Origin: Takakia lepidozioides
Lineage: Eukaryota; Plantae; Bryophyta
Direction: 5' to 3'
NCBI GenBank assembly: GCA_030704615.1
Contig: CM060734.1
Span: forward strand, 53,196,001 to 53,260,000
DNA: 64,000 nucleotides
The translations under genes were made by a program, and so were the position numbers. The first letter of the stretch is position 1. Each line of letters starts with the position of its first letter. Below, piece by piece: positions 12,969 to 63,445 of this stretch. The notes below the pieces were generated by a model, which saw nothing but the letters and a program-made list of their open reading frames with translations, did not search any database and was not told the origin of the DNA.

Positions 12969-13063
<95 letters not shown>

Positions 13064-35623: not shown

Positions 35624-36720
35624 CAGTGTTGTGCGGGTATATTGATTTCAATATACCCTTGGGGTATAAGTAAGTTATTTTTGTCAAATCATTTACCCTC
35701 TGGGTATGTATAAATTGAAATCTCAAAAACTTATTTACCATCCGGGTATGGGTAAATTAACTTTTCAGATTTCTATATAACCCCCCCGGGTATGGATATA
35801 TATGCCAAAATATACCCTGAGGGTATGAATAGTTTCCGGGTATGGATAGTTATTTCCATTAATATATAATTTAATGGTTTTAAGGAATATATGATGTTCT
35901 TCAATATGTACAAAACACAAAAAAAAAAACAATCTATGGTAAAAGAGAAAATTGATAAGATATTGCATAATATTTTGGTGTTAATTTCCAATGCAAGATG
36001 GAGGAGGTTTGAGATTTTTTTTTAAACACATCGGCTCATAGCTCAACTGGTAAGTGCACAGTGTGTGTCACTCAGGTGGTTCGGGGTTCGAACCCGCTGC
36101 CCTTCCCGTGTGTGGGATTGTACGTGTCACGGTATGTCTAGGCGTTGATCGTCCTGTAGGTCTCATGGTCCATAAATGAAAGGGGGTTAATCTTTCCCGC
36201 TCCTCAAGGGCCTGAATTGTGGGCTGTCGCTCCCATATTTCCTTAAATAAATAAAAACCCCTCAAGGACCTAAATTGTGGGCTGTCAGGTTTTCTTTTAT
36301 GTATACATATATGCGAGATCTAAAGAGGTATTGTTTGGGTTATATGACATTTAAGGAATGATATATATGTAACATTTGTTTTAGCTGTGATTGGTGCTTT
36401 CTTATAGCTCAAGGTTCCCTAACAACACAACAAAAAGTGAAAAGACCTAGCACATAAAGGCTATAAAGGCACATAAAGGCCCTTATATACCCTGATTAGA
36501 TATACCCTTCATTTTAACATACCTTTCAGGAAAGTAGGGTATATTGAAGGTCTTGATGCAGGGTAAATATAAGGATAAGGGTATATCATAAAAAATATAC
36601 CCTGATATAAGGGTATACATCCGGGTACCTAAACTTGCCACACCAGGGTATATATATATCAATATACCCTGATATACTCGGCGGGTATATCAGGGTACTT
36701 CATATACCCGACCAACACTG
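35624..36720. mobile_element. Non-autonomous hAT element (1097 bp) with an 8-bp TSD
   Basis: Termini CAGTGTTG...CAACACTG; TSD gtgcacac at 35616-35623 and 36721-36728; many gggtat/ataccc subterminal motifs. Confidence 0.95.
36033..36105 (+). other. tRNA-derived (SINE-head-like) Pol III A/B box segment inside the hAT element
   Basis: A box tagctcaactgg and B box ggttcgaaccc; it does not fold into a convincing cloverleaf. A homologous copy lies at ~44997-45066. Confidence 0.65.
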
Positions 36721-37314
36721 GTGCACACCCTCATGGAGCTCTTGAGTTGCGGAGAAGCGGTGAGCAACAGTAGCAAGACCCAACATCATCTGTTTCCCAG
36801 GCAGAGGGGAAGAGAATTTTCCACTGCCAGAAACCAAAACCCAAAAAATGGCAGCAGATGAATCACACAATTATTGCATGGCTGCAGCAACAACGGGTGA
36901 AAATGAGGGTTTAGACCAGTGTTGGACGGGTATATATATGGACATATATACCCGGCCGGGTAATAGTCAGGGTATCATACTATTGAGACCCGCCACCCAA
37001 GTTTTGGTGGACCCGGCTTGAGTTAGAACTGGCGAGGGCCATCTCGCCACTTACCCGGCCCAAGCTGGAACCGGTGGGGGGCAACCTGGCTAACTACATG
37101 GAACCCGACTGGAACCTTGAAAATCAGCCGGGTATCAACTTTTGAAGAAGACCTTGAGATGTGATTACAACCGAGCTGCATTCATGAGTAGTGATTATGC
37201 AGCCGCCTTCTGAAGATCTCTATCGTGTTAATTCTCTGAGCGCCCAAATGCGATGGCAAACCAACATTGTTGCGAGCTTAGAGTCTACAGCCTCTGGGCT
37301 CCCTCCGGGAAAGC

Positions 37315-41089: not shown

Positions 41090-41585
41090 TTCTCAGAATA
41101 TGTGGACATTCTCAATGCATGTGCCAGCCCAGCAGCACTCGAACAGGGCAAGCGGCTACACGCCGGCATAATCAGAGTTGGTTTTGAATCAGATGTCCAA
41201 GTGGGGACTGCACTTGTCTGTATGTATTGCAAATGCGGGTGTGTGGGGGATGTGCGTGTTGTATTTGACACGATGCCTAAATGAGATGTGGTCTCATGGA
41301 CTGGGATGATGGCATGATATTCTCACCAAGGGCACAGTGAAGAGGCTTTGGACCTCTTTCAACAAATGCAACTAGTAGAAGGCATGAAGCCAAACAACAT
41401 CACCTTCATCAGCGCCCTCAATACGTGTGCCAGCCCGACCATCCTAGAAATGGGCAAGCAGATTCATGCAAGCATCATCAAAGCTGGATTTGTGTCAGAT
41501 GTCCAAGTGGGGACTGCTCTTGTCAGCATGGATTGCAGATGGGAGTGTGGTGGATGCGCACCAAGTGGTCTTCAAAATGTCTGAA
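41090..41585 (+). pseudogene. PPR gene fragment carried inside the hAT element
   Basis: ILNACASPAALEQGKRLH...VGTALVCMYCKCG...DVVSWTGM...PNNITFISALNTCAS, with in-frame stops. Confidence 0.87.
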
Positions 41586-42363: not shown

Positions 42364-44558
42364 TTTTTTTATTTTTTCATTTTTTGGAAAATATGTTTAT
42401 TTTATAGCAGGAGTGGGGATACATTCGAGGAAAAAATAACCTCTCGAACGGGTGCCATAGAGGCTGACCCAGGAAGACTCTGCTTCGTCACCAATAACAA
42501 AAAAAAAAAAAGGGCCAACTGAAATTGGCCAAGGAGAGACCAAGCTAAACAACTTGGAATTAATTATCCTAGTAGCTATCACGCTTCCTTTTGTATGTCT
42601 GAAAGGAGAGCTGCGTCCTAGATCGAGTTTTTCTAAGAGAGCGGCGGTGGTGTCTCCAGTTCACTTCAGATTCCTCGCCATCTGCCGGAGAAGGAGGAGC
42701 ACTAAACGAGCTCCCAGCTGGAAGGGATGGAGTCGTTCCAACAAATTCCCGAGGGTGAGTCTCTAGAGCAGAGGGAGCCAGAGGGCTTAACCTGGAACTT
42801 CCATCCATTCAGCAAGGCGTCAGATCTAGCCATGGCAAAGAAGGCAATTTTGCCTTCAGCTATGTCAAAGCCAACCCAGGCAGGCAACATTCTAAGATTT
42901 GCAGGATAGGAGGCAAGGGAAATCCAAAGAGATGGAAAATTGCTAGTGTCCAGGTCCCAGCCTGCATACGCTCTTCTGCTAGATAAGTTGGTTGTAGCTT
43001 CAATCATGGGTAACAAGGCACCATTTTCCCAAACGTGGGAGAAATGGCTGATGTTGACAGCCTCCCAAGGAGCCCAACGATTAGAGCATCTTACTAGAGC
43101 AGCAGCCTCTCTATTTGTGTTGCCGAAAAGAACTTGTCTGGACATCTCTTCGGGGGTGGAAGGGCCCAATTGGCGGAGGTGGGGGCGCAGCCTGATCCAG
43201 GCTGCCCAAATAGTTCTCCACGCCAACGATCCCACCCCTGGCTTAGCGTTTAAAGAACCGCCATGAATCACCCACTTTAGAGATTGAGGGACAAGTTCGA
43301 GGAGGAGGGGGTGGCACGTAGAATATGTTGCCTGACCAGGATGCTGGCCACTGTTTTTCTTTTTCTGCGAGATCTGGTCCCAGCTAACTAAAGCCCTACG
43401 GTTTGGCCTTGAAGGTGTGGCTCCCCAAATGAAATTGCGGATTAAAGCTTTAACCTTCTTGATAAAGACAACTCCAGGGGACCATACGGAGGATATGAAC
43501 CAACAAGAACCCAGCAAAATCTGATTGGCAATTAAGGCTCGACCAATGATGGTGAGATGCAAGGAGCTCCAGTAGGCCAGATGCTTCTTAAGGCGCGCCA
43601 AGATGGAGTCACATTTGTGGGAGTCATCTAGGCCATGTCCAATGAGGTGACCCAAAAGAACGTGGCACTCCCCATCATCCAGCCAACGGAGGTTGATATC
43701 CTGACCCCACTGTTGACAGTGAGAAGAGGAGCTGCCAGTCCTAAGCTTCGAGAGCAGACCAACCGATTTCCTCCAATTCACACCAAGACTTGATGCTTCG
43801 CAGAAAATGGATAAGCAATCCAAGGCACGGGAAACATTAGCCCTGGAGCTGTTGTTGACCAGGAGAACAGTATCATCGGCGTACATGGAGGATTTTATGC
43901 TGTAGGAGGGAGATGGGGGGCAGGGCACCTTGAGGCCTATGACGTCCTCACGACTATGCAGTAGATGTCCAAGCCCGTCTGCTGCTATGAGGAAAATAAA
44001 AGGCGATAAGAGACATCCCTGCCTGACGGAGCGGAAGAGCCGAAAAGGCTCAGATAAGACTCCATTGAGCATCACCTTACTACTGGCAGATAACAGGAGG
44101 ATCTTGATCCAGTTAAGAAAATCCCCTGAAATTCTGCATTTTTCAATAGCAGAGAAAAGGAAGTCCCAGGCTATATTGTCGAATGCCTTCTCAAAGTCGA
44201 GCATCAATAAGGCCAAGGGTTGATCCGAGTCATGCGCATGATGGAGGGCTTCGTTAAGCAAGAGAACATTGTTAAGGATCATCTTTTTCATAAATCCAGT
44301 TTGTTCCGGCCTAATCATCTTTTGAAGCAGGGGCTGAAGGCGAATCGCCAAGGCCTTGGTGATTATCTTGTAAACAGAATTCAATAGAGTTATAGGCCTG
44401 TAGTTCCTAATATCGTCTCTGCTACCCTTCTTGAAGATGAGGGTGATGACACCCAGTGAAAACTGGGATGGCATAATGCCCTTCGAGAGGACGTCTTGAG
44501 CCATGGCCAGAAAATCCCCGCCCATCTCAGGCCACATAGCCTTGAAGAATTCCACCGG
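42364..44558 (-). mobile_element. 5'-truncated L1/Tx1-like LINE nested in the hAT copy
   Basis: 617-aa ORF 44555-42702 with NYRPITLLNSVYK, LDFEKAFD, RQGC.LSP and YADD; A-rich tail at ~42364-42385 (T-run on the + strand). Confidence 0.92.
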
Positions 44559-44763
44559 GTTTTTGTCAAATCATTTACCCTCCGGGTATGGATAAATTGA
44601 AATATCATAAAATTATTTACCCTCCGGGTATGGGTAAATTAACTTTTCAGATTTCTATATAACCCCGGTCATGGATATATATGCCAAAATATACCCTGAG
44701 GGTATGAATAGTTATTTCCATTAATATATAATTGAATGGTTTCAAAGAATATATGATGTTCTT

Positions 44764-44834: not shown

Positions 44835-46947
44835 GATGTTCTTCAATATGTACAAAACACCCGGGAAAAAAATAAATAAATAAATAATAAATAAAATCTA
44901 TGGTAAAAGAGAAAATTGATAAGATATTGCATAATATTTTGGTGTTAATTTCCAATGCAAGATGGAGGAGGTTTGAGATTAAAAAAAAAACACATCGGGT
45001 GGTAGCTCAGCTGGTAAGTGCACAGTATGTGTCACTCAGGTGGTTCGGGGTTCGAACCCGCTGCCGTGTCCCGTGTGTGGGATTGTTCATGTGACGGTAT
45101 GTTTGGGCATTGATCGTCCTGTATGTCAAGTTATTTCACCACTAGTGTGAAACTAGCCAGGAAATAGCTAGCTTTTACATATTGACATTTGGGATTGGCC
45201 CAATTGTCAATCCAGGGGTCAAGGCATATTTAGGCCTTGGAATGGTTATCTTCACGGCAAGTGCGGGAGGCTCATCTTTCTCGAGTTGAGCCTCACCGCG
45301 CCTAGCTATGGTACCGTAGTGTGGATTCCCCATGGCGTGGGGTGCACTTGGCTTGACTTGTATTTGAGTGATGAGGTTATATATGCATGAGTTTATGCTT
45401 CAGCTTTGTGAGCTCGTGCTTGTATTCTTCACACTCGAGAAAGATGAGCTCGTATCTGTGAGTGCCAGATACGAGTTAGTTGTAGCATTTGTGGTTTTTG
45501 CTTGAGAATGAAAGAAACCAGGTTGTTATGCAAGGAGCACCGTGGAGCTCTTGGTTGTTAGAAGCGGAGGCGATGTGGGTTACGAGGTAGTAGACCTTGG
45601 CATTCAATCTTCAGCTTCAGAGATGAGAGCACCATGCTGCAGGTAATTCCAGAGCACCTTGATGGTTTCAGATTGTGTACATGCATGAGCAAGCACGATT
45701 GGGAAGAGGACCAGTCAAGAGCAGGTTAGAGTGGCTTTGGTGGCAAAGCTGAGAACTGGACTTGGGAATGCGAGCTTTCATTGTGTGAAGGATTGCAAGA
45801 CCAAGCAAAAGGGCTGATTTGGCTTGGGGCAAATCAATGCACTTTGTGGAGTATGTTGAGATTGGGTTTCAATCTCGAGCTTCAGCATTGAGAGGGCTCT
45901 TGTCATGGCAAGAGCAGGGCTGAAACAGGAACTAAGAGGTGCGGCAAGGCCTTGGAATCTGCACCTAGGGTTTCAGAGCTTGGAAGAAGAGCTCTTGCAC
46001 AACAAGAGGAGTGTCTTGTGGCTGTAAATACAAGCCTTAGGGTTTCAGGAGCTTGGCAAGGGCTGTGGAGTGCTTAGTCTTGTCTTAGAGAGCATCAGGG
46101 AGCCAAAGAGCCAAGATAGGGGGCTGATATTACCTCTTGTGTGAAGAAGATGCATGCAGCCTATTGAAGCTTCCATCTTCAAGCTTGGAGGGCAAGCAAG
46201 GAAGAGGGAATGGCTGACTTCTCTTATGTGAGGCCAACGGATGTGTGGAGCATGCTTTCAGCCCGTTGAAGGCTTGTACTTTCAGGTTTGGGAGTGCAAG
46301 AAAGGAAGGAAGGGGCTGTTTTCCCTGTAGGGCATGTGTGGAGCATGCTTCCAGCCCGCTGAAGCTTGTATTTCCAGGTTGGTGGGTGCAAGAAAGGAAG
46401 CAAAGGGGCTGATTCTCTTGTGGTGAGAGTGGGGCATGTGTGGAGCATGCCTTCAGTCCATTGGGCTTTTGTTTTCAAGCTTTAGAGAGCTAGAATGGAA
46501 GGGCTAGGGCTGGTTCCCACTTGGGTGAAAGAAAAGCACTTGTAGGGCATATGTGAGGTGGGGTTTCAACCTCAAGCCTAGATAGAGCATGGCTCTTGAA
46601 GTGGCAGGTGTAGGGGGCTGGAATAGGTTCTAAGACATATGCTATTGCCAAGGAAAACGCTTGAATGAGTGAAACCAGCAAGGCTTGGTTGTTTGCCATT
46701 GAGTTTAGTGACGTGTTTGGGGAGTCTAAGTGAGAAAGAAGGCTTGGTTTGTGGCAACCATCTTCCTCATGGCTTAGGGCTACTATTAGTGGTGTGTAAG
46801 AGCCGAAAGAGCAAGAATACCTTGTTGATTTCTTCACAGCCGCCATAGCTCGGTGCAAAGAAGCCTAGAGTCCAAGAGACACAAACCCTAGCTTGGCGTG
46901 GCTAAACCCTTGGAGAAATGGCTAAACTGCCATGAGCGGCCATGGAT

Positions 46948-47290
46948 GGGGCTGTGACGGGCTGTGGCCTTTGAGGCTGTGACCCCTGTGACCTGTGTAG
47001 GGTTGTGACAGGCTGTGATCTGTGGCCTGTGGGGCTATGAGGGGCTGTGACAGGCTGTGGCCTTCGGGGCTGTGACCCCTGTGACCTTTGTAGGGCTGTG
47101 ACAAGCTGTGCTTGTGGCCTTCGGGGTTGTGATGGGCTGTGACAGGCTGTGACCTGTGGCCTTGGGGGCTGTGACATGTAGCCTCTGGGGCTGTGACGGG
47201 CTGTGACAGGCTGTGGCCTGTGTGGGCCTGTGCTGGTCTGTGGTGGCCCGTGTTGACCTGTGGACGGCCTGTGCTGACTCGTGGAGGCAC
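46948..47290. repeat. Degenerate gggctgtgac/ctgtggcc short tandem array in the element's 5' leader
   Basis: Many gggctgtgac(a/c/g) units. A separate ~3x catgtgtggagcatgc repeat lies at 46240-46460. Confidence 0.8.
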
Positions 47291-47849
47291 TGGTGGAGTG
47301 CCTAAGGACTGGTATGTGGTCTTGAAGGCCGAATTTTGAAGCTCGTGGAGAGCGGTTTGAGGAGTATCTTCATGATATTCCCATGGTCATGCAAGTGAGG
47401 GAAGAGATGAGGAAAAGAGTGTTGGGATGAGGGCATGTTGGGGTTAGGCATTGCTTTAGCTTCTTTTCCTCGTAGTTTTCCACCCTCTCATTAGGCCAAG
47501 ACCTTTCCGTAGGTGGAGGCAAGAATCAGTCCGGGTTTGGGCTGGGGTGTCCTTGCAGAAGCAACACCATGGAGTTGTTTTTGGTGTGGGGGAGTTGTCG
47601 TTCTGATTTCTTGTGTTTGGATCCCCTCCATACCTTCATGCTTGACTTTGCACCATGTTAGTTTTGTGTGGGCGCTTGTTTTTATAGGTGATTGGTCCGG
47701 ATTTGATCACCGGCCAGTCCTAGAGCATGCTGTCGATGGTGAGGCTGGGGTGATGACCAGTCAGACCATCATTGTTTCTCCTGTGAGGTTGGAGGTGATG
47801 ACTAGCCAACCATAGGAGTGCTTGCGGTGGATGCAGGTACAGGTGTAGG

Positions 47850-49950
47850 CTATGTTAGGAACCTAGTATTCCAAACCATAAGCCGCAACAAGTTCTCTAC
47901 CCGGTTACCTTGTGGAGAGGGGGTTAGGGACATGTTCATGACCGGTTGAGTGACAGTTTGTCAACACGGAGGTGCCACTAGTTGCTGGGGACATTGCTGG
48001 TTTAAGCACTAACGATACTAGTGGGTACACGAGACAAGGTGTGCGGTTTAGGCCACCTTCATCTCCTGTGTCTTCTACGGAAGGTTCTGATTCGGATTGT
48101 GAATCAGGAGGACTCACACTGGCGGTGCAAGTTGTTTCATTGCCATTGTTGTGGGACACAATGGAGGAGATGTATGGAGCTACCAAGGGGCCACGAAGGT
48201 ACTCTGGGGCGGTGGGCACCATCGAGTTGGATGATTTTATCCAAGAGTTTGATAGTTGGTGTGATTTGCAGCAAATGCACAATCCATAATTATTTACGCC
48301 TTTCATGGCATGGAAGGGGCTGTTTCAGCACCTTGAGGGGCCGCCTATAGATGATTACCATGAGTTCAAGCGGGGGCATGAGGTTGAGATTGAGGAGTGG
48401 AGGATGTACTGGTCACCCGACTATGTCTCCATCACTAGGGGCACTAGAGTCACGAGGGCAGTGGCTACACCTGCCGCTGCACCGGCAGCTTCAACAAGCA
48501 GCAGTGGGACTAGTAGGACAGGTGGTACCGTAGCTACGACGTCCACCCAAGCCACTACCGCACCAGCACCAGTACTCGTGCCTGCCTTCAACCCTGTTGT
48601 GGAGTTCTTCAAAGAGTTGAGAGGGAACTACCAAGGGGTGATGACAGAGAAGTTGCGGACCTTGCAAGAGTTCCAACGGAAGCCGACTGAGAGCTTGAGG
48701 GAGGCTTTCACTCGCATGAGGCGCTTGATAAATGTAACTCAAGGGGTTACGGAAGCTTAGGCAAACCAATTTTGGTATGGGATATTGGACAAGGAGCTGA
48801 GGAGAAGGGTGCGGGATGCAACTCTCTTAGAAACGGCCCAACCCACCTTAGCAAATGTGTTTTTGCTGGCAGAGTGGATAGAGTTCAACATGGTGGAGGA
48901 ACAAGTGGTCATGGTGGGATTTGCTAAGGAGACACCACGGGGTAGTGGTGCTCCTAGCCAACCACTACCACAACGTGCTCAAGGCAACAAGGGGGCTCAG
49001 GTGAAGCCTAGGGAAGGGCATAGAGGACCTCAGATACAGGGGTCTCTCCCTTCATTTGCTGGCCAACAACGGGCGGATGTGGTGTGCTGGACATGTGGAG
49101 GACCCCATGTCAAGAAGGATTGCCCAGAGGGAGGCAATGGTTTGGCACCAGCACAGCCTGCACAGTTGCAGTGTGGGTATTGTGGCAAGTACGGGCATGG
49201 AGAAGCCTAGTGCTATGGTTTGCATCCTGAGTTGCGTCCAGGCCAGTTCCAAGGGAACAATGGTGGCCGGGGGCGAGGTGGAGCAGCCTAGAGAAGACGA
49301 GGTGGCCAGGCACGAGGTGCAGGCCAAAGGCAAGCTCAACATGGAGGACACGGAGGTCAGGGTGTTGACCAAGGCATGGCCAACCGGCTTCAGCAGCTAG
49401 AGCAGAGGCTCGCTGCCATGGCTACAGCTCATGTGGTACCGGCTCCAAGGTCGGATGGTCCACCTCCTGCTCCTGAGGGAGTAGATATGGGAGGCATGGG
49501 ATTCATGTGCGGAGCAGCACTACCACTAGTGCAGGTGGAGTCTGCTGCAGCCATGACCCGAGGAGCAGCACGAGTTCCTGAGCCACGAGGTGCAGAGGTG
49601 GAGTTGGATTCACGGCGTGGGGAGGCAAGCCGTCAGGCTAGGCTTCCTCAGTCATTCACGTTGGCGGAGACAGTGTCGACGCCATCCATGGCACCTAGTT
49701 CTTGCCCGACTGTTACCGAGGCGGAGGTTACTATGCCATTGGGGAGAGCTACACGGGCAACATCACTACCTAGTGTTGTCAAGACTACGACAGCTAATGT
49801 GATGTTGGGAGCGGCCACATCTATGTGCCAGGCTCCATTATTCTCGGCTACCATGATTGCGACGTCGGGGGTAAGACCAGCTGAGGTGTTCAGGCTGGCA
49901 GCTACACTCTGTGAGAGTGGGGAGGTTACTTCATCTTTCTGCGGAGATAA
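47850..49950 (+). pseudogene. Gag-like region with two CCHC-type zinc knuckles
   Basis: YSGAVGTIELDDFIQEFDSW, FQRKPTESLREAFTRM, CWTCGGPHVKKDC and CGYCGKYGHGEA*C, interrupted by stop codons. The start is uncertain. Confidence 0.8.
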
Positions 49951-50099
49951 TAGGAGGTGTAGTGCCGGAGGGATCCGCGGATTTGAGGGTCAAGACTGCC
50001 ATGGCGGCGCCATGGCAAGCTGCATCTGCCAGGTTGATGGAGCTGCCAGCTAGGCCAGCCATTGAGCGCGCCATTGTGACACCTGGAGTTGTCTTGTTA

Positions 50100-50520
50100 G
50101 ACAACCAGGATGACATTTTCTATTTGAGTGGACCGGCAAGCAAGAGGTACCGGCCACTGCGGGTCTTGTTGGACTCGGGAGCTCAGCCATTGATGCTGGG
50201 CAGAGCTGCTATTGCATGCTTGGGCCTCACGGAGGCGGATATGGAGCCTTGTCCTTTCCAGATACAGACGTCTCTAGGAGGATTGGAGCAGGCTCGAGGC
50301 ATGACATGGCGTGAGTTGGCTATCAGACTACGACTGGATCACCCTACAGATGGCTCAGTGATGCGAGCCAAGGCCATTGTGATAGACGTGGTCTCATACG
50401 ATGTCCTGGTTGGTGGGGCAGTGTTGTACCCCATGGGCTTCACCCTGGATTTTTGGGAGGAGTCAGCTTCCTATAGGCCTGGATGGCAATCAGGGGAGGG
50501 CCGACGTGTGCAACTCCGTG
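50100..50520 (+). pseudogene. Retropepsin-like aspartic protease
   Basis: RVLLDSGAQPLM...YDVLVGGAVL. Confidence 0.85.
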
Positions 50521-50859
50521 TGACATTCATACGAGGAGTTGCGGTTGCCCAACGAGACAAGATGCTGACACTAGCAGCATTCACAACTGCACTGAGTTGG
50601 CCTGGAGAGTTGCTTGAGGGCAACACTTATTCAGAGGATGTGTCACCTCCGGGAGAGCAGGATGACATGCATGGTATGGCGGAGTTGCCTGCCATGATTG
50701 CTCAGACTCCATTGTGGGGCACGAGCAAGGATTTGTAGCAGGTTGCTGATTGATGGGTGCAACAAGCCTGGGTAGAGGCTTTTGTACCATCAGGAGAGGA
50801 GGAGAGTACGGGGATTACACCAAGACCACCTCAGTTGTCTCCATTGGACACCACACCTA

Positions 50860-51860
50860 TTGTGTGGCAGTATCCAGATGAAGGCATTTGTCTTCTGGAC
50901 TTGTTTGGCGGGATCAGCACTGGATTGGCTGCTGTATTACAGACAGGTGTACGAGTTCGGCGTTACCTGTATGTGGAGAGGGATGAGATTGCACGACATG
51001 TTTCACTTCGCCATGTTGCTCAGTTGGTGCAGCAGTACCCTGAGTTGTTGTCGGCGTCTGCAGTTCAGTTCAGTTCAGTTCAGTTCGTGGATATCAGCAA
51101 GTCTTACCAGCAGACATTTCGTTGCTGGGAGCGCAGGATTTGGAGCGGGTTGGTTCTATTGATCTAGTAGTGGCAGGTTGGCCCTGCTAAGGGCATTCAT
51201 CAGCCGGGCATGGCAATGGATTGCGAGACTCGAGGTCGGGTCTGTTTTGGGAGATGGTGCGGGTTTTGCGCCATTTGCAGTTTCATCAAGCTGTATCTCC
51301 AGCATACATCTTGGAGAATATGCCACTGATGGGCGATTCTCGGGCCAGGGTGATGGCCAGTGTGCATAAAGTCCGGTCGTGGCTTGGGTCAGCAGTGTTG
51401 CTGGATGCAGCTGCAGTGGGGTCACGGGCTCATCGTCCACGGCTATGGTGGACTAACTTGATGCCACCCGCACTGCTCAAGCGTGCATTTGGAGGGGATG
51501 CAGCGGCCAACACACCTCACAGTGGATAGCATTTTGGACACAGGGAGGTAGTCTCAGCGTGTGAGACACGATGACCGTTCGCCTTTGGCAGTGGTCAACA
51601 TGGTGGGTCAACCACGAGCAACATTACCTACACTGCTCAGCTTCCCATGATCGCATGCTTTCTGGGATAGTGGACCTGGCCTCCTGTGGGATGCTTAGTT
51701 GCAGCAGTTAGTGGAGCCTAATGCTGACGAGCGTGAGTGGGCAAAGGGTTTTACCATTGTACCACGGCAGTGCCGTCTCTTTCTGAGGCATCACGTCGTC
51801 AGGTGTTGGGGCAAGCAATGGATCTCAATTGCTTGACCTGGATTATCAGCTTGGTTATGG
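50860..51860 (+). pseudogene. C5 DNA cytosine methyltransferase domain, DNMT3-like, inside pol
   Basis: Motifs occur in order: I LLDLFGGISTG, II YVERD, IV IDLVVAGWPC*GHS (PCQ with CAA>TAA), GLRDSRSGLFWE, VI ILENMP, VIII DAAAVGSRAHRPRLWWTNL, IX ERE(W)AKGF and X RRQVLGQAMD. Stops and a frameshift are present. Confidence 0.9.
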
Positions 51861-52279
51861 ATGAGCAACGCAGAGTGCAGAGTGCAGAGTACACTTCCCT
51901 CGATGGTCTTTCCCCCTACCGAGACGGTACAATCAGTGAGTGGGGGCGAGCATGAGAGGACCACGGGGTGCAGACATCCATGGCACACGTGGGAGGTGCT
52001 TGAGGTTCAGAGGGAGTTGGCAGCCAGGGCGGCGGTGTTGGATGAGGTTGGGGATTTGTCTCGGGTTGAGGAAGTCCTCGAGGATGAGATGATGGGGCAG
52101 GATGAGGCCTTGTTACTGACTGAGCAGGTAGGGAGTACTGCTCAAGAGGTTGCAACATAGCAACCACTAGACGCGTCCTCTACCTCTAAGCCCACTGGAC
52201 TTAAGGTTGCAGTTACGGAGGACAATTGGGAGCCTGACATTGGACCCATTGTCACCGGAGGAGAGAGACGACGTATACG

Positions 52280-53670
52280 GCGATTCCTGAGGGCTTACAT
52301 GAATTGTTTTGCCTTCAGTTTGAAGGACTTGGGAGCACTGAAGGGTCAAGAGATCCGTATTGAGTTGGCCACTGACACGCCAATCTTTCGGAGACCTTAT
52401 AGATAAAGTGACATAGAGAGGTCTTTGATTCAGATGAGGACTCAAGATCTCTGGGAGGCGGGTTTGGTGGAGCTCTCTTGTGGAGAGTATGCTTCGGCCA
52501 CAGTGATGCCAGCCAAGAAGGATGTCTATGGCAATTGGACGGAGAGACGTATGTGCGGTGATTACCGGCCTGTAAATCGTCAGACCAAGTCTGATAAGTA
52601 TGCCATGCCAACACCAGAGGAGATCTTTGATGCCATCGGGCATGTTAAGGTCTTTAGCACTTTGGATTTACGATTCGGATATCACCAGTTGCCGATCAAG
52701 GAGGCGGACAAGCAGAAGACGACATTCTGGGGGATCAATGAGCACGGCAAGGATTGCCTATATCAGTGGTGGTTCTTACCATTTGGGCTTAAGAACGCTC
52801 CTGCAGAGTTTCAGAGAGTCATGGATAGGATTCTAGCAGGGGTGGACTTTGCTCGGTGCTATATAGATGACATCATCATCTTTAGTGCTACGGTGGAGGA
52901 GCATGAGAGACACCTTCAGGTGGTATCGGAGCGCTTGAGAGCGCACGGATTGAGGTTGCATCCGGGGAAGTGCAAGTTTTTCCACAACCAGATTGAGTAT
53001 TTGGGTCACATGATATATCCTGGAGGATTGGGGGTACAACAGACTAAGGTAGAGGCCATTGCACAAATTCCACGCCCCACGGATGTGAGCCGAGTTCGAG
53101 CTTTCATGGGGTTGACAAACTATTAGAGACGGTTTGTCAAGGGATTTAGTGCCATTGCAAAGGCTCTAACCAAGCAGACCAAGGTGGACTAGGAGTGACA
53201 GTGGGAAGACGAGCAGGAACAAGCTTTTCAAGAGCTCAAGGCGAGGTTGACTTCGGCGCCTATCCAGAGACGACCTATCAGGGGGCGTCCCTTTCAGCGC
53301 ATATGGATTGGAGCATGCTGGGGCTTGGAGCGGTGCTCACACAGGTGGATGATGAGGGAAGAGAGTTTGTAGTGGCTTATGCTAGCCGCACGAACAATGC
53401 TGCAGAGGCTAAGTATAGCTCATATGAGGGAGAGTGTCTAGCTGCAATGTGGGCCGTAGCACACTTCAGGTGTTATCTATACGGCAATCTCTTCACCCTT
53501 GTCACGGATCACCAGCCACTCAAGTGGTTGATGGAGTCAGACAAGCTTACGGGGAAGCTTGCACGATGGGCACTCATATTCCAGGAGTATGACTTTCAGG
53601 TTGTGCATCGACCGGGTTTGGTCAATCGGGATGCAGATGGATTGAGTCGCAATCTATGCACGAGCTAGCA
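52280..53670 (+). pseudogene. Gypsy-type reverse transcriptase and RNase H
   Basis: RMCGDYRPVN, YAMP, STLDLRFGYHQL, PFGLKNAPAEFQ, YIDD and YLGH; RNase H DWS...LGAVL, YSSYEGECLA, TDHQPL and NRDADGLSR. Confidence 0.93.
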
Positions 53671-53991
53671 GGATGACACTGGAGCTTGGTGGCATGGTGA
53701 GACGGACGAGGAGATGGTGCCGGAATGGCATGCATCTGTCTTTTTGTGTATCTTGGCATCGGGAGTTTGGACCTACAATAGGGATGTCTGTAGACGGAGT
53801 GTCTGAGGACCCTCAGGCTAGTGATGAGCCAGGTGGTGCCAGAGATATACATGAGGATTCGGCTGTGTTGGACTACCTCCGCACGGGAGACACGGCAGCC
53901 ACTGTGACTGCCAAGGAGAGGGATCGGATCCTACAACGAGCCAAGAGGTTCAAGTGGGATACACCTGCTTCGAGTATGGGAGGATGGTCGG

Positions 53992-55284
53992 GTGAGGATT
54001 GTGTCTCACCCAACACAGCGTGCACTGTTAGTGCGGCATGCCCATGAGGAGTTGGGGCATTTTGGAGTGCGACGCACTCACAGTTTACTGCAGGGGCAGT
54101 ATTGGTGGCGTGGTATGCATACAGAGGTGCAACAGTTCGTGGCTAGGTGCATGGTGTGTGACAGGGTGCGTGCTTTATTCAACGCCCCTACACCACAGTT
54201 GCATCATTTACCAATCACGGGATTGGACTACAGGTGGAGTCTTGACTTCGTAGGATCGTTGCCATTGACTATGCGCCACCACATATATGTGTTGGTGATG
54301 GTGGAGCACTTCTTCAAGTGGATTGAGTTGGTTCCGTTGCCTGACAAGGCTAGTGAGGGGGCTGCGTATGCATTCTTGGATCGTGTGCTTAGCCGATTCG
54401 GTGCTCCAGCTGAGGTACTCACGGACCAAGGGAGAGAGTTCTTGGGGGAGTTTCAAGCTTTGTGTGATAAAGCCTTGATAGATCACGACACCACTTCTCG
54501 GGATTATCCTGAGGCCGATGGCTTGGCAGAGAGAGTTGTTCAGACGGTGAAGAGGGGTTTACGCAAGTATAGCTTGCAGAAGGGACACCTAGGAGATTGG
54601 GATCTTCAGGTACCTTGGTTAGCCAAGGGCTACCGGTTTAACAAGCAAGCATTACTTGCCTCCTTCTCACCATATTTTCTTCTCTTTGGCCGAGAGCCAG
54701 ATTTGCCTGCAGCCATTTGTAGGGACACTGCTCAAGTCCTCAACCTTGACGATCCGGATGTGTGGGTATGTGCATGTGATCAACGTGCAGAGTTGTTCAA
54801 GAAAGTCATGCCCATGGCTTTTGAGAATCTTGCCATTGCACAGCATCGTGATACGTTGAGGTATGTCACTATACGTGGTGGAGGATATCGTCCTGGGGTT
54901 CGGAGATTTAGCCCTGGTGATTATGTTTATTTGCAGCAGACTGCTCCTACGACCCTGGATGTGACTGCAGGGCGTGTTATTCTGAGGGTTCGAGAGGTGT
55001 TGCCCTCAGGAGTCCTGATCTTGGAGGGTCGGGATGACATGACTTGGAAGGATCATGTGCGTAATTGTGCGCCATGTCACCTTCCCAATGTTGATGGCAG
55101 AGTTGACCCAAACTTGGCAGTGGTACCTGCAGGTTTGAGGTGCATGCTCTGTGGGTCTGCCAAAGGGGCAGCCACCATGCTTGTGTGTGATCGATGCTCA
55201 AGAGGTTGGCATATGGGATGCTTGACACCACCTCTTGAGAAGGTTCCTGATGGAGATTGGTTGTGTCCACACTGCTTGGGATAG
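53992..55284 (+). CDS. DDE integrase with a C-terminal PHD finger (open 430-codon segment)
   Basis: HHCC (HEELGH...CMVC), WSLDF, LTDQG and LAER; C-terminal CMLC...LVCDRC.RGWHMGC...WLCPHC is a C4HC3 PHD (55141-55275). Confidence 0.92.
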   Translation: MRIVSHPTQRALLVRHAHEELGHFGVRRTHSLLQGQYWWRGMHTEVQQFVARCMVCDRVRALFNAPTPQLHHLPITGLDYRWSLDFVGSLPLTMRHHIYVLVMVEHFFKWIELVPLPDKASEGAAYAFLDRVLSRFGAPAEVLTDQGREFLGEFQALCDKALIDHDTTSRDYPEADGLAERVVQTVKRGLRKYSLQKGHLGDWDLQVPWLAKGYRFNKQALLASFSPYFLLFGREPDLPAAICRDTAQVLNLDDPDVWVCACDQRAELFKKVMPMAFENLAIAQHRDTLRYVTIRGGGYRPGVRRFSPGDYVYLQQTAPTTLDVTAGRVILRVREVLPSGVLILEGRDDMTWKDHVRNCAPCHLPNVDGRVDPNLAVVPAGLRCMLCGSAKGAATMLVCDRCSRGWHMGCLTPPLEKVPDGDWLCPHCLG

Positions 55285-57699
55285 TGGCAGTGGACATGAC
55301 TGGAAGCAGCTAACAAGACATAGGAGGCCAAGCTCATAGGAGTCAATACACGAGATCCCAGGTTCAAGTTCACAGATTGCAAGACGGCGACTAACGATGG
55401 GGAAACTCTTGCACCCGGCCTCTTGATCTATCGAGTTTGAGTGTAGTAGGGACAATGGTGGAGGACTTAGTGAGGCTACGGTCACTATCACATCTTGTGG
55501 CTACCTGGATAGGCGATTGTGGTGGACTAGTGATTGCCATAGAGGGCAGCCTAGCGACTGACTAGTGGCAGCCTAGTGGTTGGACTAGTGGCTGGACTAG
55601 TGGTGGACTAGTGGTATACTAGTGTGTGGTGTGCACATGTGTTGTGTGGTTTTGGACAGTGATGTAGTTGTGTAGCGATATGTATGCGCACGACAGCTGT
55701 CTAGTTATTTCACCACTAGTGTGAAACTAGCTAGGAAATAGCTAGCTTTTATATATTGATATTTGGGATTGGCCCAAGTGTCAATCCAAGGGTCAAGGCA
55801 GATTTAGGCCCTGGAGTGGTTATCTTCACGGCAAGTGCGGGAGGCTCATCTTTCTCGAGTTGAGCCTCACCGCGCCTAGCTATGGCGCCGTAGTGTGGAT
55901 TCCCCATGGCGTGGGGTGCACTTGGCTTGACTTGTATTTGAGTGATGAGGTTATATATACACGAGTTTATGCTTCAGCTTTGTGAGCTCGTGCTTGTATT
56001 CTTCATCTTTATCATTGTGGTGGACTAGTGATTGCCATAGTGGGCAGCCTAGCGACTGACTAGTGGCAGCCTAGTGGTTGGACTAGTGGCTGAACTAGTG
56101 GTGGACTAGTGATATACTAGTGTGTGGTGTGCACATGTGTTGTGTGGTTTTGGATAGCGATGCAGTTGTGTAGCAAAATTTATACGCACGACATGTAGGT
56201 CTCATGGCCCATAAATGAAAGGGGGTTAATCTTTCTCCCTCCTCAGGGGCCTGAATTGTAGGTTGTCGCTCCCAAATTTCTTTAAATAAATAAATAAATA
56301 AAAACCCCTCAATGACCTAAATTGTGGGTTGTCAGGTTTCCGTTTATATATACATATATGCAAATCTGAAGAGGTATTGTTTGGGTTATATGACATTTAA
56401 GAAATGATATATATGTAACATTTGTTTTAGCTGTGATTGGAGCTTTCTTATAGCTCAAGGCTCCCTAACAACACAACAAAGAGAGAAAAGACCTAGCACA
56501 TAAAGGCTATGAAGGCACGTAAAGGCCCTTATATACCCTGATTAGATATACCCTTCATTTTAACATATACCCTTCAGGAAAGTAGGGTATATTGAGTGTC
56601 TTGATGTAGGGTAAATATAAGGATAAGGGTATATCATAAAAATATACCTTGATATAAGGGTATACATCCGGGTACCTAAACTCGCCACACCAGGGTATAT
56701 ATATATCAATATACCATGATATACCTGGCGGGTATATCAAGGTAATTCATATACCCGCCCAACACTGGTTTAGACAAGGACAAGGAGGTGGTAATAGCCG
56801 TGGTTCGTGCTGCAGTTTAGCAACTTGGAGGATGGAGCAGACAACTAGTGTTGTAGTATTTTAGACAAGGTACATTAGCCAACACTAGCCAAGATGTCTG
56901 GCATGCAGTTGTCAAGAAGTATGGTATTTGCAGATTGGTACTTCTGCGCAAGAATCTACCATTCTACCTTTAATCTAAGTTCATGTATGCATTGTATGTT
57001 GTGACAGAGAGGGTTGGGTTGTAATTGCCTCTCATATTACAATGTTTGCGACCTTAACCGGTGGACCCCACGCACAGACGCCCGGCTCGCCCCACCCTGC
57101 CCGCCGCTGCGCGCGGTCGCCCAACCGCGCCCCCAGTCCGCTGCCCTCCAGTCTGCCATTCCAGTGCTATCCAGTCCGCTGCCCCGCGTCCCTTAGCCAG
57201 TCCGCCGAAGGCGCCGGATCTGGACTGTCCATTTCAAAACCCATCCAAGCCCTCCTTTTTTAGGGCTGGGAAAATCTAAACCCTACCACCAAAACCGCCC
57301 TCTCTCTTGTGAGGGCTCTTTGTTGTCCGATGTCGCGGTGGGCACTTCCACGCATGCCGTGTTTTTCTTGTGCACGAGCGACGTTCATGATGATGAAGGG
57401 TGTGCCTGAACATGACAGGACTGGCGGGGCGGGCTCTACAGCCACCATCGTGCATATGCTTCCACTATTTTGCCTTCTTGTTGTGCTTTAGGGAAGGTTA
57501 GGCTTTGTGGTATGGTTGTATCTCATAAAATCGCTATTGTCTTATCTGTCCTCCATCTACTTCTGGTCCCTCATGATACCCCTTCGTACTACAACGGACC
57601 CCATGAGGGCGGAAATCGCAGAAGCATGATATGCACATGGGGGTGTGTATACATTGCAGATTTCATATCGGACGATGGGACTGTTTAGGGGACGAAGTA

Positions 57700-58420: not shown

Positions 58421-59457
58421 CTTGAGACGGAGCCTACCCCAGCCCCCCAACAGACCCCTGACCTCGACAGTCCTCAGCAGACCACATCATACTACAGCAC
58501 ACCACTTCTGGACTCCCTCCACCAGCATGGCGTGACCTTCGAGTCCCCCTCCACACTTTCACCGGAGTTTGAGCGAGATGTCAACTGGAAACACCTCAAA
58601 ACTTCATCCAAGGCCTCCAAACTCAATTACTCTTAGATCCTTCTACTTTAGGAAAGGTCAATGAGGTTGTAGGCTTGCCTACATTTAAGTGGTCTTCTCT
58701 CTCAGGATCCGTCCCAACATTTAGTTCCTTCAACCAAATAGCATATATATCTTTTAAACATCAATTTTTTTTTTTTTTAATATCGTCAAATATGAATAGG
58801 TTGCATATCATATGTAATAACATTCTAGAACTAACATGGGCCATAAGGCAAAACAATCGGGGGGGGACTTCTTCAAGCGACCACAACGGGTAGCTGAAGA
58901 TAACAAAAGGTTCATTGTGAATATAGTTAGCTAAAAAACCTTGCAAGTAAAAAAGTAAGACTGTAGCAAATCTTGGATACCAACGATGCACCATAATCTA
59001 CTGCATTGAGAATTGCAGAATCGCAGAGGAATATAAACGAAAGTACGAGAAGAAGAATTAAGCCCAAGGAAGACGACGACGGAAAGAATACACTTCTTGT
59101 TTCAATCCACTTATCTTTATCTCACTCAGCCATGATGTAAGCTCATGCACTCTCTCACGTGACTTGCACCATCCCTTCAGCCACTTACTCTACAGAAAGA
59201 GAGCATTTGCTTTGAACATCCGGCTGATAACTAGTCACAACCACCACTTACATCGTTCGGCGCACGATATTACCAACTATAGCTAAATCTTGCATTATCA
59301 GAAGGTCAGAATCCTATAAATTAGTAGAGGCAAAACTTGCAGGGGGGTGCACTCTTCCTAAAATTTACATATTAGTATAAGTTCATTGACATCCAATTAA
59401 CAATACCCATGTATATAGATTCTTTCATGATTTTATCATATGTATACATATATTATA

Positions 59458-62400
59458 TGTAAAGTTATTTTACCATTAGTGTGAAGTTAGCTAGGAAATA
59501 GCTAGCTTTTATATATTGACATTTGGGATTGACCCAAGTATCAATCCAGGGGCCAATACATGTTTGGGCACCTGACGTTGTTATCTTCACGGCAGATCGC
59601 GGTGGGCTCATCTTTCTCGAGTTTAGCCTCACCGCGTCTAGCTATGGCACCGTAGTGTGGATTCCCCATGGCGTGGGGTGCACTTGGCTCGACTTAATAT
59701 ATGAGTGATGTTTTCATGTGCAAGTATGTGAGTTTGAGAGAGCTTGTGTGCTTGTATCATTTCTTTTTTTATCACTCGAGAAAGATCAGCTCAAGTCTGT
59801 GAGTGCCAGGTTCGAGTTAGTTGTAGCACTTATCTTTTCAAATCATGAGAAGCGGTTCAGCCTAGAGTGCTGTAAGGGCTCTTGGAGTGGCAAGAGTGGG
59901 GCTGGAAGGGCAGCACCTAGGCGTCCTAGAGCCAGGGAATGTGCAATAGAACTGCAGGTACACCAAGGTTGTAAAGGTGTGTATTTTTTGATTTGTTTTT
60001 GTGAGCTTCATGAAGAAAATGGAGCTTGTTGGGCAGCATATTGCTTGCTTGTTGAGTTTAGGGTGCTTCCAGTGGGCCATGAGAGCGCAGGAGTGCAGGG
60101 CGGTGGGGCTGATGGCTCTGCAAAAGCCATAGCTCAGCGGCAGCAGGTGTTGGAGCAAACCCCAACTCGGGGAGAGCTCGGGAACGCGTGGGAACATCCC
60201 GAGAGCGATCGAGAAAGCATGGGAACTCGTGTGGAGTTCCTGGGAACGCAGGGAACTGTTGACCATGACCGTTAACCGTGACTGTGGGAAGCCGTGATGC
60301 GGACACCACGGGTGGGCACGGTGACCAGATCGTGGGGATGGCGGGCCGTGAAAGCTCGTGGGCGTGGTACCACGGGGTATCACGGGGCAACCCGTGGCCA
60401 ACAAGCGCCTAGGGCGGGCCGTGAGGAGTCGTGGTGGTTGGAGCCACGGAAGGCCGCGAACAGGCAGATTGAAAAAATAAATAAATAAATAAATATTTTT
60501 TCACTCATTTCATGGGACCTTGATGGGGAGGCTGGGCTCTGAAGAATAACGGTTTTGAGCTAGCTGATCCAGCAGAAGAGTCAGAATTCCCTCCCTGTTG
60601 CGTTTTAACAAAGGGGATTACTTCCCTGCAGGTAATCTTTTCGGGTTTTCAGCCCAAATCTTAACTATGGGGGAGACCAGCCTGCAGGTAATTCTTTTGG
60701 ACAGAATGTTGTTGGGGCCTATATGTACCTCTATTTGCTCCATTTTTGAACCTTCAGTGAATGGTGTGGTTTCCTGAGGTGGTTCCATTGTGAGGAATGG
60801 CTGGTGGACGTAAGGAGGCACTGGCAGACCCTGTGGAGGCTTGCATGGGGCCTTGGAGGCCAAGTTTCATGAGCTCGTGGAGGGCGGTTTGAGGAGTGTC
60901 TACAGGATGCTCTCATGGTCATACAAATGAGAGAAGAGAGGAAAAAGAGGGTGTTGGGATGAGAGCTTGCTGGGGATAGGCATTGCTTTAGCTTCCCTTC
61001 CTCATAGCTTCCCACATTCTCTGTAGGCCGAGACCTTTCCGTAGGTGGAGACAAGAGTCAGTCCAGGTTTGGGTTGGGTTGCAGGAGCGACACTGTGGAG
61101 AGATTTTTGGTGTGAGGGAGTTGTTGTTTTCATTCTTGTGTTTGGATCCCCTCCACACCTACATGCTTGATTGTGCGTCATCTTAGCTTTGTGTGGGCGC
61201 TTGATTTTATAGGTGGTTGACTCGGGCTTGATCGCCGATTCAACCAGAGCATGTTGTCGATGGTGAGGCTGGGTTGATGACCAGTCAGACCATCTTTGTT
61301 TCTCCTGTGGTGAGGTTGGAGGTGATGACCAGCCAACCATAGGAGTTCCTGCGGTGGATACATGTGCAGGTACAGGCTATGTTAGGAACCTAATATTCCA
61401 AACCATAAGCCGCATCAGGTTCTCTACCCGGATACCTTGTGGAAAGGGGTTTAGAGACACGTTCATGACCGGTTGAGTGACAGTTTGTCAACACGGAGGT
61501 GCCACTAGATGCTGGGAAAAGTGCCGATACGAGCACTAGCAATACTAGCAGGTATACGAGACAAGGTATGCGGTTTCGGCCACCTTCACCTCTTGTGTCT
61601 TCTACGGAAGGTTCTGATTCGGATTGTGAATTAGGAGAACGCACACCGGCGGTGCAAGTTGTTTCATTGCCATTATTGTGGGACACAATGGAGGAGATCT
61701 ATGGAGCCACCAAAGGGCCACAAAGGTACTCTGGGGCGGTGGGCACCATTGAGTTGGATGATTTCATTCAAGAGTCTGATAGTTGGTGTGACTTGCAGCA
61801 AATGCGCAATCCACAATTGTTTACGCCTTTCATGGCATGGAAGGGGTTGTTTCAGCACCTTGAGGGGCCGCCCATGGATGATTACCATGAGTTTAGGCGG
61901 GGGCACGATGTTGAGATCGAGGAGTGGAGGATGTATTGGTCACCCGACTATGTCTCCATCACTAGAGGCACAAGGGCAACAGCCACACCGGCAGCTGCAA
62001 CAGCAGCTTCCACGAGCAGTAGTAGGACTAGTGGTACAGCAACTACGACATCCACCCAAGCTACTGCTGCACCTGCACCAGTGGCCGTGCCTGCCTTCAA
62101 CCATGTTGTGGAGTTTTTCGAAGAGTTGAGAAGGAACTACCGAGGGGTGAGGACAGAGAAGTTGAGGAGCTTGCAAGAGTTCCAACGGAAGCCTACTGAG
62201 AGCTTGAGGGAGGCTTTCACTTGCATGAGGCGCTTGATAAATGTAACCCAAGGGTTACGGAGGCTCAGGCAGTCCAGTTCTGGTATGGATTATTGGACAA
62301 GGAGTTGAGGAAAAGGGTGCGGGATGCAACTCTCCTACAAGCAGCCCAACCCACCTTAGCAAATGTGTTTTTGCTGGCAAAGCGGATAGAGCTCAACATG

Positions 62401-62624
62401 GTGGAGGAACGAGTGGTCATGGTGGGATTTGCTAAGGAGACACCACGGGGTAGTGGTGCTCCTAGCCAGCCACTACCTCAACATGCTCAAGGCAACAATA
62501 GGGCTCAGGTGAAGCCTAGGGAAGGGCAGAGAGGACCTCAGATGCAGGGGTCTCTCCCTTCATTTGCTAGCCAACAATGGGCGGATGTGGTGTGCTCGAC
62601 ATGTGGAGGACCCCATGTCAAGAA
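59458..62624 (+). mobile_element. Second, 3'-truncated member of the split-direct-repeat retroelement family (A repeat, leader, gag)
   Basis: Starts tgtaaagttatttt, homologous to A1. 60800-62624 aligns with ~47280-49116 (shared gag peptide); it breaks off inside the first zinc knuckle (CSTCGGPHVKK). Confidence 0.9.
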
Positions 62625-63445
62625 AGAGGGACAAAGAAGCCACTTTGGTGCAGAGTCTGTCCAGGGAAATCCCTGCTGAGCATGTGGCGGAGGTTCCAGG
62701 AATGGAGTGTAGGAGCACTGCAACACCTGTGGAGAAAGAGGTCGTTCAGGAAGAGGATCTGGTGGGAACATGGCCTGAATGGTTGGTGAAACATCACATT
62801 GTGGAGGATCAGGGAGAACAACAACAAGTTCACCATGACGACCCACAGCAGGCCATGCTTATGAATTCCATAAGCAAGACACTCAATTTGTTGGGCCCTA
62901 TGACCAAGAAGGAGCAAGCTAATGCTTTGAGGCGGGTGAACAGGCGAGCCAGGGCATAGGCAATACGAAACCATGATGCGCGAGAGGAAGATGGACTCCC
63001 CCCTCAAGTGCTTCCGGTTGACAAAGTTGGAGAGCCCATTGGACCAGCACGCAATACCTGGCATGCAGCCCTCAAAGGCCAGATGTGGCGTTTGTGTGAC
63101 ATGTCAATGCATATTGCAGAGCAGGATGAATCTGTCATTGAAGAAATATACAGGATTCTAAACTCTACATTTGCATACACGCCACGTGGTCTTGACTATG
63201 AGCACATGAGGAAGACACTTGGCATTGCCTTGAAAACCCAAAGACACGAGATCCATGCACTGTACAAGGCAGGCGAGGGGAGGCCTGCACATCTAAAGGA
63301 AGCTCATTGGGATAGGCTGGTATCGTATTGGTAGACAGCAGGATTCAGCACAAAAAGTGCCCTCATGAAGGTTGCAAACTCATCAATCAAGAAGCCTTCA
63401 AAAACAGGACGTGGTGGGAAGGCATCTGTTGAGGCTCGGCTTGTA
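62625..63445 (+). mobile_element. CACTA/En-Spm TnpA-like (Transposase_24-type) coding remnant
   Basis: GEPIGP...W...LK...RHEIHALY...RPAHLKEAHWDRLVSYW resembles plant En/Spm ORF2 proteins; stops are present. Confidence 0.5.

Follow-up and report, generated by a model that had tools for sequence, protein, structure and literature searches.

Introduction

A DNMT3 domain borne by a Gypsy retrotransposon is already known. KnitGypsy-Dnmt3 of Klebsormidium nitens has repeats of the DIRS type alongside Gypsy domains (de Mendoza et al. 2018, PMC5890265), and the review file of that paper gives the DIRS layout as A1/A2 with two B repeats flanking A2. According to the accessible text of this work, the capture of the domain is regarded as confined to the K. 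nitens lineage. In yeast, the KnitGypsy-Dnmt3 domain showed no activity, as was also the case for human DNMT3B, and the authors considered the result inconclusive. SymbioDIRS-Dnmt3 of Symbiodinium methylates CG de novo in yeast. Methylation of cDNA was proposed by the KnitGypsy-Dnmt3 authors, and in the text available activity is reported only for the DIRS enzymes (PMC5890265).

SymbioDIRS-Dnmt3, SymbioLINE-Dnmt and the EpiLTRs are, as described, also retrotransposon-encoded C5 methyltransferases, but they belong to other retroelement classes or other DNMT clades. In the EpiLTRs a DNMT4-related domain lies at the 3' end of Pol, together with DAM and a chromodomain, and the portion of the same preprint available places Gypsy-DNMT3 under streptophytes only (bioRxiv 10.64898/2026.05.21.726589).

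Stop codon readthrough has been described separately. UAG-CAR-YYA is the readthrough motif of TMV (PMC3159437, as excerpted), and in-frame readthrough stops are known in the LTR elements Tj1, Tosmo and Tcry1 (bioRxiv 2022.12.06.519325, as excerpted). Among the lineages of REXdb, Phygy, Selgy and Ogre are Ty3/Gypsy elements of non-seed plants, like the element studied here, a comparison made by description; Ogre also separates GAG-PROT from RT-RH-INT (PMC6317226, as excerpted).

Herein, a DNMT3-like domain is described in a Ty3/Gypsy element of Takakia lepidozioides. The window is the whole stretch of 64,000 nucleotides that was analysed. A first-pass annotation, made from the letters of the window, had named Klebsormidium as the precedent, and KnitGypsy-Dnmt3, as published, is the right comparison. 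That annotation had overlooked the in-frame stop, the integrase's PHD finger and the split direct repeats.

Results

Domain order of the window element

A complete but broken Ty3/Gypsy element with TG…CA ends occupies 45124-56193 of the window. The order Gag-PR-RT-RH-IN with a DDE integrase was found, as in Ty3/Gypsy elements, and the following coding features were located.

48150..49950, + strand: gag region of ORF1, broken, limits approximate; weak Retrotrans_gag match (PF03732, E 0.018) and Cys/His knuckle-like motifs
50070..50540, + strand: aspartic protease (PR), LDSGA at 50169; weak match to PF13650 (E 0.036)
50841..51870, + strand: DNMT3-like C5 cytosine methyltransferase (MTase), motifs I-X, with four stops and three frame changes; PF00145
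52158..52166, + strand: in-frame stop TAG CAA CCA, end of ORF1 (Gag-PR-MTase), conserved among relatives
52161..53290, + strand: reverse transcriptase (RT), start of ORF2, YIDD at 52860; PF00078, E 1.8e-30
53288..53660, + strand: RNase H (RH); PF17917, E 5.9e-33
53956..55100, + strand: integrase (IN), H2C2 zinc-binding domain and rve core; PF17921, E 2e-16, and PF00665, E 2.3e-12
55120..55284, + strand: PHD finger, C-terminal on the integrase, then a stop; PF00628, E 1.5e-10

The gag of the window shares 50-67% identity with closer relatives and 22-26% with the relatives L045, L057 and L098. Stops and frame changes lie in gag, MTase, RT and RNase H. The window copy is dead and makes none of the proteins proposed below.

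Classification of the methyltransferase

The motifs of the domain were mapped as follows.

50889-50912, + strand: motif I
50973-50987, + strand: motif II
51176-51187, + strand: motif IV, GWPC, followed by TAA at 51188
51218-51253, + strand: GLRDSRSGLFWE, between motifs IV and VI
51314-51322, + strand: motif VI, ENM
51428-51460, + strand: motif VIII, AHRPRLWWTNL
51729-51752, + strand: motif IX
51809-51823, + strand: motif X, GQAMD

The motifs named in the first-pass annotation are indeed present on the + strand, in canonical order, between LDSGA (50169) and YIDD (52860). The check proposed there with the Pfam DNA_methylase model also came out positive, and PF00145 matches 51083-51520 with E 2.9e-11 and 43.8 bits (cut-off 22). 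The other three frame pieces of the MTase gave no Pfam match when searched alone and share about 45-75% identity with relatives. The inactivation that had been read from the stops was borne out: besides the TAA at 51188, stops are present at 51549, 51648 and 51696, and of the three frame changes the first is at a CAGTT pentanucleotide run near 51060-51090. The codons of the catalytic residues are kept even though the reading frame is broken.

When a profile of the relatives was compared with the PDB, the matches were DNMT3A (E 6e-23), DRM (5e-13) and HaeIII (5e-8). The predicted fold of the relative P0004 (pLDDT 78) also had DNMT3A/B as its best matches. By profile and by predicted fold, the MTase of the window family is a DNMT3-type enzyme of non-permuted order, closer to DNMT3 than to DRM, DNMT2 or the bacterial enzymes, in agreement with the type first assigned to it.

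Distribution and selection

The MTase core of the window retrieved 67 homologues at E<=1e-8 among 1298 candidates, and a query with a relative retrieved 269 protein clusters at E<=1e-30. The named homologues come from Marchantia polymorpha, Calypogeia fissa, Sphagnum troendelagicum and Closterium, with the architectures Gag-PR-MTase or PR-MTase-RT; no protein named Klebsormidium was among the matches listed. A metagenome scan retained 80 of 115 matching loci, most of which were drawn from a small number of related data sets and lack independence. In loci of at least 6 kb the MTase is flanked either by PR and RT or by RNase H and integrase. Viral contigs gave 17 weak partial matches at 22-53% identity, which were set aside.

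The element is also covered deeply in one sequencing run, possibly the source of the window itself, from which 103,533 contig records map onto it. In this run the MTase bins have depths of 0.72-1.10 million and the RT bins 0.84-0.99 million, values that give depth and not copy number. Joints that skip the MTase were rejected as repeat artefacts, with sides of about 21 letters and a depth near 400 against hundreds of thousands.

dN/dS was computed on the stop-free copies L045, L057, L058 and L098, in three pairs, a fourth pair being saturated. The MTase gave 0.135, 0.128 and 0.086, similar to PR (0.085-0.126), and the values of RT (about 0.05) and integrase (0.014-0.031) were both below it. Within-family pairs of decayed copies gave 0.45-0.78. 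Among 260 near-full-length domains, the Cys of motif IV is kept in 257 and the Glu of motif VI in 258, and the two Arg of motif VIII in 255 and 257. Motif IV reads EC, not PC, in 148/260 domains, and motif VI reads ENT in 119/260.

The comparison of dN/dS across copies had been suggested in the first-pass annotation, which took the MTase for a stable polyprotein domain. The homologues at the same position in relatives and the values above uphold this, and on these comparisons the DNMT3-like domain is a stable family domain under purifying selection. An intronless DNMT3-like domain under purifying selection was found within a Gypsy coding region, a feature by which a KnitGypsy-Dnmt3-like element is recognised.

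One stop-free family member, L098 (CADCWO010000201.1), is deposited in a cyanobacterial MAG and is the sole match in a prokaryote genome. It was rejected as evidence for a bacterial source, being a eukaryote-type retrotransposon and probably a binning contaminant.

A conserved stop ahead of the reverse transcriptase

The TAG at 52158-52160 is in frame with RT and is followed by CAA CCA. The MTase had been placed inside pol at first. This placement has to be corrected, since the MTase and RT are not in one open frame: the TAG splits Gag-PR-MTase from RT-RH-IN, and in the window clade the Gag-PR ORF has the MTase as its last domain, before the conserved stop. Many homologous proteins terminate about 90-120 residues past motif X. 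In KnitGypsy-Dnmt3, by its published description, the DNMT shares one ORF with RT and RNase H, whereas in the window clade a stop lies between them.

The stop was screened in 82 sequences, namely the 80 metagenome loci, L098 and the window. After 17 that do not span both domains and 8 with RT upstream were set aside, 57 were left. In 48/57 loci, or 39/46 clusters at 97% identity, a stop in frame and with CAR directly after it lies no more than 30 codons from the N-terminus of RT. The nine remaining loci comprise three with TAA-CAATCA out of frame, two with tandem stops at this place and four with nothing. The contexts in the 48 loci are TAG CAACCC (24), TAA CAACCC (12), TAA CAATCA (3), TAG CAACCA, TAG CAATCA and TAG CAGTTA (2 each) and three singles, with TAA as the stop in 16/48. 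The stop is not universal, as P0082, P0295, P0298, P0299 and P0318 hold MTase and RT in one protein.

The full motif UAG-CAR-YYA, in frame with the downstream ORF, occurs in the window, L011, L045, L057, L058 and L098 (6/48, plus three with TAA). Among 471 distinct decay stops used as control, CAR follows in 18 and CARYYA in none. YYA is kept across CAGTTA, CAATCA and CAACCA despite the change of residue (Leu, Ser, Pro). L057 has a 1369-codon Gag-PR-MTase frame, then TAG CAGTTA, then a 1047-codon RT-RH-IN-PHD frame in the same frame. In L098, TAG CAATCA is the sole stop between ORF1 and a same-frame ORF2 of 1047 codons, and in L045 a single TAG (CAATCA) separates the ORFs, apart from a gag frameshift. 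The commonest context, CAACCC (36/48 loci), misses the last base of CAR-YYA.

From these sequences, RT, RNase H, integrase and PHD finger are very likely expressed by readthrough of the conserved stop, and the MTase and the protease would therefore be made at Gag level. The one in-frame stop would set a high ORF1:ORF2 ratio, as described for TMV, MuLV gag-pol and Tj1/Tosmo/Tcry1, and the stop context in the window and in the stop-free relatives matches the tobamovirus motif as published. In the LTR readthrough cases, as described, the stop lies between Gag and PR, whereas in the window clade it follows PR and the added enzyme.

ORF2 could also be reached by splicing across the stop, in the manner of Ogre, or by reinitiation, with the MTase still at Gag level. 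MTase is joined to RT in Marchantia and Closterium gene models, as splicing would have it, although the junctions differ among the Marchantia models, and in the stop-free relatives a single in-frame stop separates the ORFs, with no spacer, the Ogre spacer being roughly 274 bp. Reinitiation could be permitted by the ATG that follows the CAACCC context, two codons past the stop in the large L001-like group. In L057 and L098, however, the first ATG past the stop is codon 117, inside RT, so that AUG reinitiation could not yield a whole RT. The 3' context, moreover, fits a known readthrough motif. Both routes are considered quite improbable, and readthrough is retained as the preferred reading.

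Split direct repeats and the target site

The ends of the element were determined by repeat comparison within the window.

45120..45123, + strand: left target-site duplication (TSD) TGTA, from alignment to the uninterrupted copy of the target repeat
45124..45431, + strand: repeat A1, 5' end of the element, 308 nt, starts TG, ends CA
55516..55695, + strand: repeat B1
55692..55701, + strand: palindromic B1/A2 junction GACA-GC-TGTC
55698..56005, + strand: repeat A2
56014..56193, + strand: repeat B2, 3' end of the element, ends CA
56194..56197, + strand: right TSD TGTA

The element is flanked by the 4-bp duplication TGTA, which can be read exactly because an uninterrupted copy of the target repeat is present at about 35.7-36.7 kb, aligned at about 36150-36165. 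A1 and A2 have 13 differences in 308 nt, and B1 and B2 have 10 in 180 nt. The termini are DIRS-like split direct repeats in the layout A…B-A-B, the 3' end reading B1-GC-A2-B2 instead of forming two LTRs. This layout resembles that of KnitGypsy-Dnmt3, a likeness drawn from the published description and not from its sequence.

Split direct repeats were found in the window, L060, L064, L050 and L040, and in part in L003, L021 and L059. All four elements with both ends visible have TG…CA ends and a 4-bp TSD (window TGTA, L060 CATA, L064 AATC, L040 AAGG). The B1/A2 junction GACA-GC-TGTC is common to the window, L003, L021, L040, L045 and L098, with the variant GACA-NN-TGTC in L057 and L059, and its palindrome contains CAG/CTG. 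A G-run lies directly before B1 in L060 and L064. Integrases usually remove two bases, and the conserved junction, to judge by its letters, looks like joined ends that still carry these two bases.

Two identical LTRs with a tRNA primer site were not found in the window element, and no TGG-type primer site was seen by eye after A1. Hairpins folded in the 100-120 nt around the A1 end had no shared structure by eye. DIRS/PAT elements are defined by a tyrosine recombinase and the lack of a target duplication, and this identity was excluded by the rve integrase and the 4-bp TSD of the window element.

Chlorophyte-type elements and phylogenetic analysis

A second architecture, RT-RH-MTase-IN-PHD in one frame, was found in 33/214 proteins of one set and 85/182 of another. 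The named carriers are Haematococcus lacustris, Monoraphidium neglectum, a Chrzof1 model and Pleodorina starrii, and Volvox reticuliferus has an MTase-IN-PHD fragment. In these chlorophyte-type elements the homologous MTase sits between RNase H and integrase, and because they carry a homologous domain, the lineage spans green plants. The first-pass annotation had Klebsormidium right as a carrier and understated the range, which takes in bryophytes, Closterium and chlorophytes. The capture in KnitGypsy-Dnmt3 was described as K. nitens-lineage-specific, whereas the relatives found here are from liverworts, mosses, Closterium and chlorophytes. The term PHD is absent from the main text of PMC5890265, whereas the window integrase has a PHD finger. 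The junction GACA-GC-TGTC was found in 1/10 chlorophyte-type contigs (L076), most such contigs being short or collapsed.

Trees of RT and MTase were built by a quick search with no bootstrap, with one RT outgroup and without rows for host DNMT3, DRM or K. nitens. Both trees separate the RT-RH-MTase-IN type from the PR-MTase-RT type (SH-aLRT 97 and 99). The patristic distances of RT and MTase were correlated by Mantel comparison (rho 0.52 over 47 elements, 0.73 over 18 and 0.34 over 29), values that relatedness inflates. The window MTase clusters with Marchantia, Calypogeia and Sphagnum in a group of 12 rows (support 100), and the nine clade-A RT rows alone have a support of 68. P0382 and P0376 lie within the chlorophyte-type RT clade without an MTase match, and a Coleochaete scutata transcriptome protein with RT-RH-IN-PHD only belongs to the same RT clade as the window element. 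The simplest reading of these trees would be one old capture with a later relocation, the alternatives being two captures or horizontal spread.

Some chlorophyte-type Pol proteins have further features. P0284 (Monoraphidium) has a weak Tudor-like match after the PHD finger, and PF01585 was found in P0240, P0245, P0347 and P0367. Long same-strand ORFs without a clear Pfam family follow Pol at L067 5577-8697, L078 4790-7462 and L080 7272-8738.

Neighbouring sequences and CpG content

A second, truncated copy of the family lies at 59457..62626 (+). It comprises an A repeat and a portion of gag, and up to the end of the window nothing in it matched PR or MTase. Another Ty3 element, at 17777-20505 (-), whose gag and PR-RT frames are open and whose PR is followed by RT with no intervening MTase, served as the RT outgroup. 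The repeat at 35678-36722 is the second copy of the repeat into which the MTase element is inserted, and hAT transposase pieces (Dimer_Tnp_hAT match) lie beside it at 37282-39698 (+). Just upstream of the repeat entered by the element is a LINE-like open RT frame of 622 codons at 42702-44570 (-). Several broken PPR genes, which we take to be PLS-type, lie at 9850-11800, 16180-16760 and 41100-41560; like the nearest named MTases, those of liverworts and mosses, they indicate a land-plant host. At 12846-14546 an array of units of about 105-125 nt switches orientation to form a large inverted repeat.

CpG is at 0.25-0.76 of expected in 13/14 ORFs of the MTase-bearing elements and at 0.46 in the LINE of the window. 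The depletion is no pointer to self-methylation, because this LINE is equally depleted. The Ty3 element at 17777-20505 (0.80-0.85) is less depleted than the MTase element. TpA avoidance could be an alternative cause of the CpA excess.

Discussion

Our working model, on which our confidence is evenly divided, is a KnitGypsy-Dnmt3-like element with a Gag-PR-DNMT3 ORF1, a conserved stop and RT-RH-IN-PHD made by occasional readthrough, in which the MTase would be packaged at capsid level and, before integration, would probably methylate the cDNA of the element itself. The full-length RNA would give abundant Gag-PR-DNMT and little readthrough product. The protease would presumably free the MTase and the other domains inside the particle, where the MTase would methylate new element cDNA. 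The integrase, with a target choice that may be guided by the PHD finger, would then insert this cDNA with a 4-bp duplication. The MTase of the family is likely to be catalytically active on DNA, judging by its sequence. We lean slightly towards the element's own cDNA as the substrate, so that insertions would arrive pre-methylated, probably at CG, blending with host heterochromatin and limiting the element's own expression. Supply at capsid level is not required for the role of the MTase, because all chlorophyte-type elements carry it at Pol level.

With the same anatomy and the same readthrough, the MTase might instead act in trans on chromosomal DNA, such as the promoter of the element, sibling copies, the site of insertion or host genes. 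The output at Gag level would presumably far exceed the need of one cDNA, and host-genome effects and self-limiting roles are discussed in the available text of PMC5890265. However, the chlorophyte-type domain lies between RNase H and integrase, beside the enzymes that handle cDNA, and no targeting domain is joined to the MTase in ORF1; action in trans is regarded as unlikely. It could also be proposed that the protein serves chiefly to bind or shield nucleic acid (such as the ends of the cDNA, or the GACA-GC-TGTC junction against integrase) or methylates RNA, with DNA methylation secondary. Capsid-level stoichiometry would suit a coating role, the CAG/CTG-bearing junction palindrome is conserved, the Pro preceding the catalytic Cys is Glu in 148/260 domains, and the Klebsormidium domain was inactive on yeast DNA in the account available (PMC5890265). 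Against these points stand the near-invariant Cys, Glu and both Arg in the 260 domains, and a nearest fold and sequence that are those of DNMT3 and not DNMT2, and we hold this role to be improbable. That a host DNMT3 retrocopy was inserted once, into the window copy, can practically be set aside: the domain recurs at one position across dozens of loci and in named proteins from liverworts, mosses and Closterium, it is under purifying selection, and its tree broadly agrees with that of RT (rho 0.52 over 47, 0.73 over 18).

A wider scenario may be drawn from cDNA methylation, although as a whole it is speculative and on the unlikely side. DNMT3 would have been captured once, by a single Ty3 lineage that had split ends and a PHD-bearing integrase, before the split of chlorophytes and streptophytes, and would have been kept active since. 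The streptophyte branch would have moved DNMT3 before a TMV-type leaky stop, loading each particle with the enzyme. The enzyme would methylate new cDNA, and with it the internal copy of the joined ends (GACA-GC-TGTC), guarding this junction from integrase and delivering pre-silenced insertions. Genomes with very many copies of the family would contain a de novo methylation source that has gone unrecognised.

No report of a land-plant or chlorophyte Gypsy-DNMT3, or of the stop, was found in a literature search made largely without subscription papers, and the available portions of PMC12344493, PMC11982613, PMC6453930 and bioRxiv 363937 do not mention the subject. Within the literature so covered, the readthrough-type stop and the land-plant and chlorophyte range appear to be new.

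A relative of the known element is now placed in chlorophytes and, as an abundant family, in land plants, among them the model species Marchantia polymorpha. Why a transposon should encode a silencing enzyme can therefore be tested in hosts amenable to genetics. From the conserved stop, an MTase in large excess over RT and integrase is predicted, which narrows its possible roles. The combination of split ends and an integrase suggests that the termini of LTR elements can be rebuilt by a route not yet described. Finally, gene models of Marchantia and Sphagnum labelled as DNA methyltransferase can be the ORF1s of transposons.
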